From: a virus | Taxonomy: Duplodnaviria; Heunggongvirae; Uroviricota; Caudoviricetes | DNA length: 12,615 bases | Strand: one strand, 5' to 3' | Virus record (IMG/VR): IMGVR_UViG_2547132277_000006 | Shown here: in pieces, positions 699 to 1,449 of the stretch | Layout: each line of letters opens with the position of its first letter | How positions within the stretch are numbered: the stretch's first letter is position 1 | Position numbers and translations under genes: made by a program | The notes under the pieces: generated by a model | Told to the model about the DNA's origin: nothing | What the model saw: only the letters and a program-made list of their open reading frames with translations | The model's database searches: none

Positions 699-708
699 GT
701 TGGAGTCA

Positions 709-1449
709 TTACCTGTTTATTCCATCTGTGACGCCGATTATTTTCTCAAAATAATGAGATGGCGTGACACCATAATAATCTTTAAATGCACATATGAAAT
801 ATGAAGTACTGTTATAGCCACATTTCTGGGCTACGACATTGATAGAATAAGAGTTTGAAGTTATGAGTTTTTTTGCATACCTCATCCTAGTATCTCTCAA
901 TATTTCAGTAAATGACGTTCCTTCATCCCTTAATCTTTTTTTTATTAAACTTTCACTCGTATAAATCAATTCCGCAATATCTTTTAAATGCCATTGCCGC
1001 TCAATATTAAAACTGATTATTCCAGTAATTTTACAGGTAAATGTATTTATATTTGTTAGTATAAATGAATTTACACTTTCGCGTTTTTTGAACATGGCAA
1101 GTAAGGATATACATAGTCTTTCTTTTAACCAAAGGGAGTGTGAGTCTGCTATTTTAATCCCTTCAAACAGAGAAAAAACAAGCGATAATGGAGGTTCCTC
1201 TTCAGCAATATAGCCATTCTTATCAAGAGTAAATTTGCCAGGCAGCTCATTATTCACGTCGATAAAAAAGGATAAACATGTTTTCTTATCTATATCAACA
1301 ATTCTTAGTTTAGAGGGGCATACTGGTAACTCCCTTCTAATTTTGTCGCTTACAATAAACAATGAATTTTTTTTGAACGAGATAACTCTCCTGTTTATAA
1401 TTAAATCAAATGATTGACAGATGAAAACTACGGAGCAAACATAATCCAT
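709..1449 (-). CDS. appY: AraC-family transcriptional regulator, AppY-like; C-terminus altered by IS1 (stop codon lies inside the IS1 terminus)
   Basis: 246-aa ORF with SD AGGTG 6 nt upstream of the ATG at 1449. The C-terminal half carries an AraC-type HTH (…[39 protein letters not shown]…[28 protein letters not shown]). The N-terminus [16 protein letters not shown] matches my recollection of E. coli AppY. The last codons AGG-TAA are contributed by IS1 bases 709-713. Confidence 0.8.

Follow-up and report, generated by a model that had tools for sequence, protein, structure and literature searches.

Does the IS1 element that abuts the appY gene in this stretch of DNA mark a place from which neighbouring genes have been lost, or did it merely land in appY? 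The appY gene encodes an AraC-family activator of hya and appCBA and lies at the end of the DLP12 cryptic prophage. In the 12,615 bases analysed here (the window), its 3′ end runs directly into IS1, and ompT, expected on that side, is nowhere to be seen. The original prediction, made from the window alone, held that IS1 sits in the place of ompT and may mark a deletion of the ompT side. Comparison with complete Escherichia coli genomes gives a plainer answer: the element is an ordinary, textbook IS1 insertion and not a deletion scar.

The composition of the appY 3′ end can be read base by base. Intact AppY in E. coli C is encoded by 750 nt and comprises 249 aa, as does the cluster representative (P0001), and the gene ends with ...GGA ATA AAC AAA ACA ATT GAC TGA. 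The BLAST match between the window and native appY starts exactly at position 714, which is base 155 in a query whose first base is 560, and bases 714–1500 are 100% identical to the E. coli C nucleotide sequence, E. coli C being one of many genomes that match the appY part at 100% and have no IS1 there. The stop codon TAA is the complement of bases 709–711 and lies wholly within IS1, while the preceding Arg codon, AGG, is the complement of bases 712–714, with GG contributed by IS1 (712–713) and A by appY (714). The encoded protein therefore keeps native residues 1–245, carries the replacement K246R and stops, so that T247, I248 and D249 are gone. The earlier proposals that the IS1 terminus provides the stop codon and that the native C-terminus of a 249-aa protein has been replaced, KTID giving way to R, are thus borne out by comparison with the intact gene, and the assignment of AGG-TAA to IS1 bases 709–713 is right for the IS1-derived part, the sixth base (714) being native.

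The gene is a truncated allele of a member of the AppY family and not another protein, as its 100% identity to E. coli C appY and its shared neighbours indicate. Like AppY of E. coli K-12, C and B, it has the same domain content and is located between the DLP12 tail-fibre remnants and ompT; it differs from them in length (246 versus 249 aa), in its tail (...GINR versus ...GINKTID) and in its 3′ flank, which is IS1 instead of the native spacer. In the five genomes inspected, RefSeq names the product AppY (WP_001393528.1) without a pseudogene flag. The immediate stop is unremarkable, because one insertion phase in three yields it as a general property of IS1. Whenever a host reading frame enters the element with two IS1 bases finishing the broken codon, translation stops at once at either end, the codons being xGG-TGA at the left end and xGG-TAA at the right end (L001 of strain 2014EL-1346-6, 14387–14395 and 15146–15154; window 705–713). 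Of the other two phases, one reaches a stop after 7 codons, and the third after 8 codons at the left end or 26 at the right end.

The element has the length, terminal repeats, insA and insB′ frames with a −1 frameshift at A6C, and 9-bp target duplication of IS1 (Table 1). It can be seen complete in the enterotoxigenic E. coli (ETEC) strain 2014EL-1346-6 (L001 14387–15154, 768 bp), where its termini read GGTGATGCTGCC... (IRL) and ...GGAGTCATTACC (IRR), and both imperfect inverted repeats of approximately 23 bp, GGTGATGCTGCCAACTTACTGAT and GGTAATGACTCCAACTTATTGAT, are matched exactly at the element ends. RefSeq labels it [quoted passage not shown] The reading direction of insA-insB′ is convergent with appY. 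The IS1-appY junction is marked by the 32-mer GGAGTCATTACCTGTTTATTCCATCTGTGACG, and the second copy of the target duplication is located just outside the window, abutting the left end of IS1 (L001 14378–14386); precise excision of the element would restore the appY 3′ end as ...AACAAAACAATTGACTGA. Compared with simple insertions of the IS1 family (isoforms IS1A, IS1B and others), the element is alike in length, repeats, frameshift, 9-bp duplication and AT-rich target, and there is no difference in kind; what is particular is the site, codon 246 of appY. IS1 prefers AT-rich targets. The G+C content is 32% in both appY and the ompT-appY spacer, which fits this preference, and seven of the nine duplicated bases are A or T.

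Table 1. Coordinates of the features discussed. Positions refer to the window unless a locus (L005 to L008) is named; a dot denotes an unassigned strand.
Feature	Position	Strand	Basis or remark
Left IS1, element positions 56-768 of 768 bp	1..713	+	Sequence reading, ORFs, full element in 2014EL-1346-6
insA	1-276		Window begins at its GTG start
A6C frameshift motif, AAAAAAC	252-258		
insB′ frame	ORF 195..698		
IS1 right terminal inverted repeat	691-713	+	Reverse complement is GGTAATGACTCCAACTTATTGAT; final IS1 base is 713
appY-side copy of the 9-bp target-site duplication, TGTTTATTC	714..722	.	
appY allele, 246 aa	709..1449	-	Translation; match to intact appY
Second IS1, diverged isoform, IRR GGTAGTGACTCC	12307..12615	-	Cut by the window end
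IS1-adjacent deletion junction	12306..12307	.	Comparison with FORC_031
Four further IS1 insertions	L005 1887-2654; L006 1887-2654; L007 2546-3313; L008 3073-3840		Equivalent to E. coli C L002 14884-15572; duplications TGGTTCCAG, GGCGACAGC, AATAATGAG, CATGTTTTC

What lies beyond the left end of IS1 decides the main question. Over all of its 12,615 bases, the window matches the chromosomes of ETEC strains 2014EL-1346-6 (NZ_CP024232.1) and B2C (NZ_CP035874.1) at 100% identity, and in both of them an unflagged ompT coding sequence of 954 nt stops 271 bp short of the left end of the element. Beyond ompT follow envY, ybcH and nfrA, an order shared with E. coli C and REL606. Intact ompT is found at the same distance of 271 bp in all five genomes inspected, which also include FORC_031, L1_E925 and L2_E1649, and the claim that IS1 occupies the place of ompT accordingly falls. 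The sequence TGTTTATTC is present on both flanks of IS1 and occurs once at the empty site of E. coli C (L002 15001–15009). With one repeat copy left out, the left and right flanks join into a 40-mer that E. coli C contains without a mismatch, and the ompT-appY spacer continues unchanged beyond the left end of the element. E. coli B REL606, in which ompT and appY are both intact, provides a second empty-site reference. In a BLAST analysis of 5,426 complete E. coli genomes, with window bases 560–1500 (941 nt) as the appY-side query, at least 28 genomes were found to carry the ompT-side and the appY-side junctions; the two sets are identical, and their coordinates fit one 768-bp element. Among the matches listed, the query, which includes the whole appY reading frame, is 100% identical in 27 of the 28 genomes. 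Because the flanks are contiguous with E. coli C, the duplication is kept and ompT is present, the appY-side IS1 does not have the features of an IS1-adjacent deletion, which would have destroyed the arrangement of the duplicated bases.

We therefore consider that IS1 entered codon 246 of appY once, by simple transposition, in a common ancestor of the ETEC O6:H16-type lineages L1 and L2, a reading to which we give a probability of about 0.9. In this event, the IS1 transposase made its usual staggered cut, by which the 9 bp TGTTTATTC were duplicated. The break falls after the first base of codon 246, so that the GG-TAA of IS1 finishes an Arg codon and stops translation, and no flanking DNA was lost, with the spacer, ompT, envY, ybcH and nfrA staying in place. 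The carriers, 28 among the matches listed, include L1_E925, L2_E1649 and B2C. E925 is the reference of ETEC lineage 1 (ST2353, O6, CS1+CS3, phylogroup A) and E1649 that of lineage 2 (ST4, O6, CS2+CS3, phylogroup A) (PMC8085198), and B2C is treated among the isolates of the L2 genome paper (PMC13212926). Since the insertion is found in the references of both lineages, it most likely predates the L1/L2 split and was inherited vertically. The chromosome of 2014EL-1346-6 is identical at the appY locus to that of the L2 strain B2C. This isolate is designated O6:H16 in RefSeq (NZ_CP024232.1) and is grouped with O25:H16 isolates elsewhere (PMC8085198), perhaps through a labelling inconsistency. The two ETEC genome papers (PMC8085198; PMC13212926) mention none of appY, IS1, ompT and DLP12, and a search of the literature on appY, IS1 and ompT together found no account of this allele. 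The mechanism is nevertheless textbook, and the sequence is deposited and annotated in RefSeq.

A separate question is whether the shortened AppY still functions. The 246-aa protein is expected to retain the whole N-terminal domain together with the AraC-type DNA-binding domain. The C-terminal double helix-turn-helix domain is present and intact in the allele: PF12833 (HTH_18) is detected at residues 159–235 with 59.4 bits against a cut-off of 33.6, the score being equal for the 246-aa and 249-aa forms, PF00165 is found at residues 198–233, and the lost residues lie after 159–235. Across 11 aligned relatives (44–99% identity), no residue after T229 is invariant and conservation declines past approximately residue 233; the tails are of varying length and sequence, and several of these proteins (239–245 aa) are shorter than the allele. 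The homologues with solved structures, namely GadX (DNA-binding domain), CsvR, Rns and ToxT, align to AppY only through residues 235–241. An AlphaFold2 model of the 249-aa protein (mean pLDDT 89, pTM 0.82) places the last helix at residues 230–244, two residues before the cut, and gives pLDDT values below 50 for residues 242–249. What the insertion removes would thus be three residues, with a conservative K-to-R replacement, from an unconserved and probably disordered tail. In addition, a C-terminal 3xFlag on AppY leaves the induction of appC and hyaA unimpaired (Derdouri et al., PMC10057817), a result that concerns an extension of the C-terminus, which differs from tolerance of a truncation. 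The intact HTH_18 domain, the variable tail, the low pLDDT and the tolerated tag together make a functional protein the likelier outcome, with odds of roughly three or four to one judged from sequence and models, and the protein most likely remains able to bind DNA and to activate hya, appCBA and its other targets. The literature searched contained no experiment on the 246-aa allele.

The strongest competing explanation is that the insertion inactivates or strongly down-regulates appY, the allele being a functional knock-down that has become fixed in ETEC L1 and L2. Several routes may be envisaged, including an unstable protein, loss of the native mRNA 3′ end, Rho-dependent termination or decay in antisense IS1, and antisense transcription from insAB. 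Foreign sequence indeed follows the stop codon, the reading direction of IS1 converges on the gene, and the truncation comes very close to the last predicted helix; moreover, plainly disruptive IS1 insertions in appY of other E. coli, one giving a 234-aa form and one a split gene, suggest that loss of the gene is tolerated. However, the DNA-binding domain is untouched, the missing residues are unconserved and modelled with low confidence, a C-terminal tag is tolerated (PMC10057817), the reading frame is unchanged in 27 genomes among the matches listed, and the NCBI pipeline calls the product AppY and not a pseudogene. We regard a knock-down as unlikely, at about one chance in five. With simple insertion and a working protein as the preferred reading, the native 3′ untranslated region would be exchanged for antisense IS1, and transcription of insAB would be aimed into the 3′ end of appY. 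Expression of appY may be changed by this new 3′ untranslated region and the convergent insAB transcription, and a modest effect is expected. A consensus scan for promoters and terminators in the ompT-IS1-appY region returned sites no more numerous than in shuffled sequence, and its sole terminator-like match falls within the appY coding region. It is tempting to speculate that the IS1-tailed appY fixed in L1 and L2 is a lineage-defining regulatory change acting through AppY dosage, not a neutral scar. Effects of AppY have been reported on RpoS, acid resistance, biofilm, motility and hydrogenase-1 (PMC10057817), and altered dosage, if true, could shift the stress physiology of globally successful diarrhoeal ETEC clones; we consider this improbable.

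The other end of the DLP12 remnant is bounded by a second IS1, which is inverted relative to the first and separate from the appY event. In FORC_031, the corresponding copy is located within sfmH and is flanked by its own 9-bp duplication, CGTACATTT. The genome of the window lacks 1,523 bp at the IRR end of this element, comprising fimZ, sfmF and the 3′ part of sfmH (FORC_031 L003 18376–19898), while the sfmH-side junction is identical in both genomes. As a consequence, the second IS1 now lies 168 bp from argU (window 12139–12306), and beyond position 12306 only 2 of the 28 genomes match among the matches listed, namely 2014EL-1346-6 and B2C. An IS1-adjacent deletion has thus occurred at the second IS1, with the element and its sfmH-side junction kept and 1,523 bp lost. 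The same process acts in this lineage and is inapplicable to the appY-side element, whose flanks and duplication are both intact.

Two inverted IS1 copies bounding the window might suggest that they form a composite transposon that imported the 11.6-kb segment from appY to argU, or that an inversion rearranged it. This is very improbable: each copy has a separate 9-bp duplication (TGTTTATTC for the left copy and, in FORC_031, CGTACATTT for the right copy), the interior is the normal DLP12-argU neighbourhood in the order and orientation of E. coli C and REL606, both of which are without these IS1 elements, and the right copy was 1.5 kb farther off before the deletion. A composite IS1 transposon was accordingly rejected, each copy having its own duplication and the interior its native context.

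The proposal that IS1 marks an IS1-mediated deletion that took away ompT together with neighbouring genes, comparable to the loss in ompT-less genomes, is less credible still. Shigella is without the DLP12 region containing ompT, and BL21 carries an ompT-nfrA deletion. These ompT-less genomes concern the same chromosomal neighbourhood; unlike them, the strains considered here contain both DLP12 remnants and ompT. Within the window IS1 does abut appY with no ompT visible, and adjacent deletions do occur in the same lineage at the second IS1. However, the unflagged genes from ompT to nfrA past the element in two 100%-matching and three further genomes, the intact target duplication, and the ompT-side junction in all 28 junction-bearing genomes among the matches listed leave almost no room for this reading. 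The original prediction had itself named ompT immediately beyond the left IS1 as the observation that would speak against it, and ompT is found there, so that the deletion idea fails on its own terms. Finally, IS1 is present at 40 or more places per genome in these strains and is a typical cause of misassembly, but a misjoining of IS1 to appY has a negligible probability, given that the same junction is found in at least 28 complete genomes that were sequenced independently, in many cases with long reads, in several laboratories and countries. A simple insertion inherited by L1 and L2 is thus the reading that we retain.

At this inherited site, the IS1 sequence itself is variable. Over the 12,306 bases that can be compared between the window and FORC_031, all eight differences fall in the left IS1, within 191 bp (window 151–341), and there are zero differences in 11.6 kb of DLP12. 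Identity of the same-site copy ranges from 96.4 to 100% among strains (96.4–99.0% for FORC_031, E925 and E1649), and RefSeq names it IS1A, IS1B or plain IS1, depending on the strain. The confinement of the differences to the left IS1 and this range of identity point to patchwise gene conversion between isoforms, the 40 or more IS1 copies in each of these genomes exchanging sequence with one another. The region has also been hit elsewhere. In unrelated E. coli, IS1 was found to have inserted independently at four more sites in the ompT-appY spacer or appY, with a separate 9-bp duplication each time. Two of these insertions lie in the spacer, one leads to a 234-aa AppY and one splits appY, and ompT is kept in all four cases. 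This 32% G+C region, spacer and appY, appears to be a recurrent IS1 target. Previous reports touch on the region only briefly: large laboratory deletions over appY, envY and ompT are described in evolved REL1206 lines, with nothing else on the region (PMC4557228), and for one UPEC isolate a distance of 249 bp from ompT to the downstream appY is given, with nothing further (PMC6854850).

Some features of the DLP12 remnant between the two elements may be recorded here. The remnant is shorter in the window (approximately 3421–5069 and 9974–10880) than in E. coli C (L002 17708–23463 and 28369–30787) and REL606. Of its tail-fibre and tail-tip genes there remain a 314-aa “head spike fibre” reading frame and a fragment, and the rusA-intD early region (ybcO, ninE, ybcN, ybcM onward) is replaced by small reading frames, one for a DUF4222 protein and another for a truncated HTH protein. 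The prophage porin gene, which is of the NmpC type and is annotated “porin OmpC” (window 8096–9178, + strand), is an uninterrupted reading frame of 360 aa; the K-12 copy of this porin gene is interrupted by IS5. A lipoprotein gene of the bor/iss type (window 6012–6305, + strand) is intact.

The consequence of these observations is small: they correct a plausible but wrong inference, and the strains retain ompT. The residual interest of the locus is only as a marker of the ETEC L1/L2 lineages and as a natural truncation of the AppY tail. The TGTTTATTC site in codon 246 of appY is a stable IS1 marker in at least 28 complete genomes, including the L1 and L2 references, and the IS1-appY junction could serve as a lineage-specific marker for PCR or typing. 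The allele is also a natural three-residue truncation of the AppY C-terminus, which may be used to probe the role of the tail.
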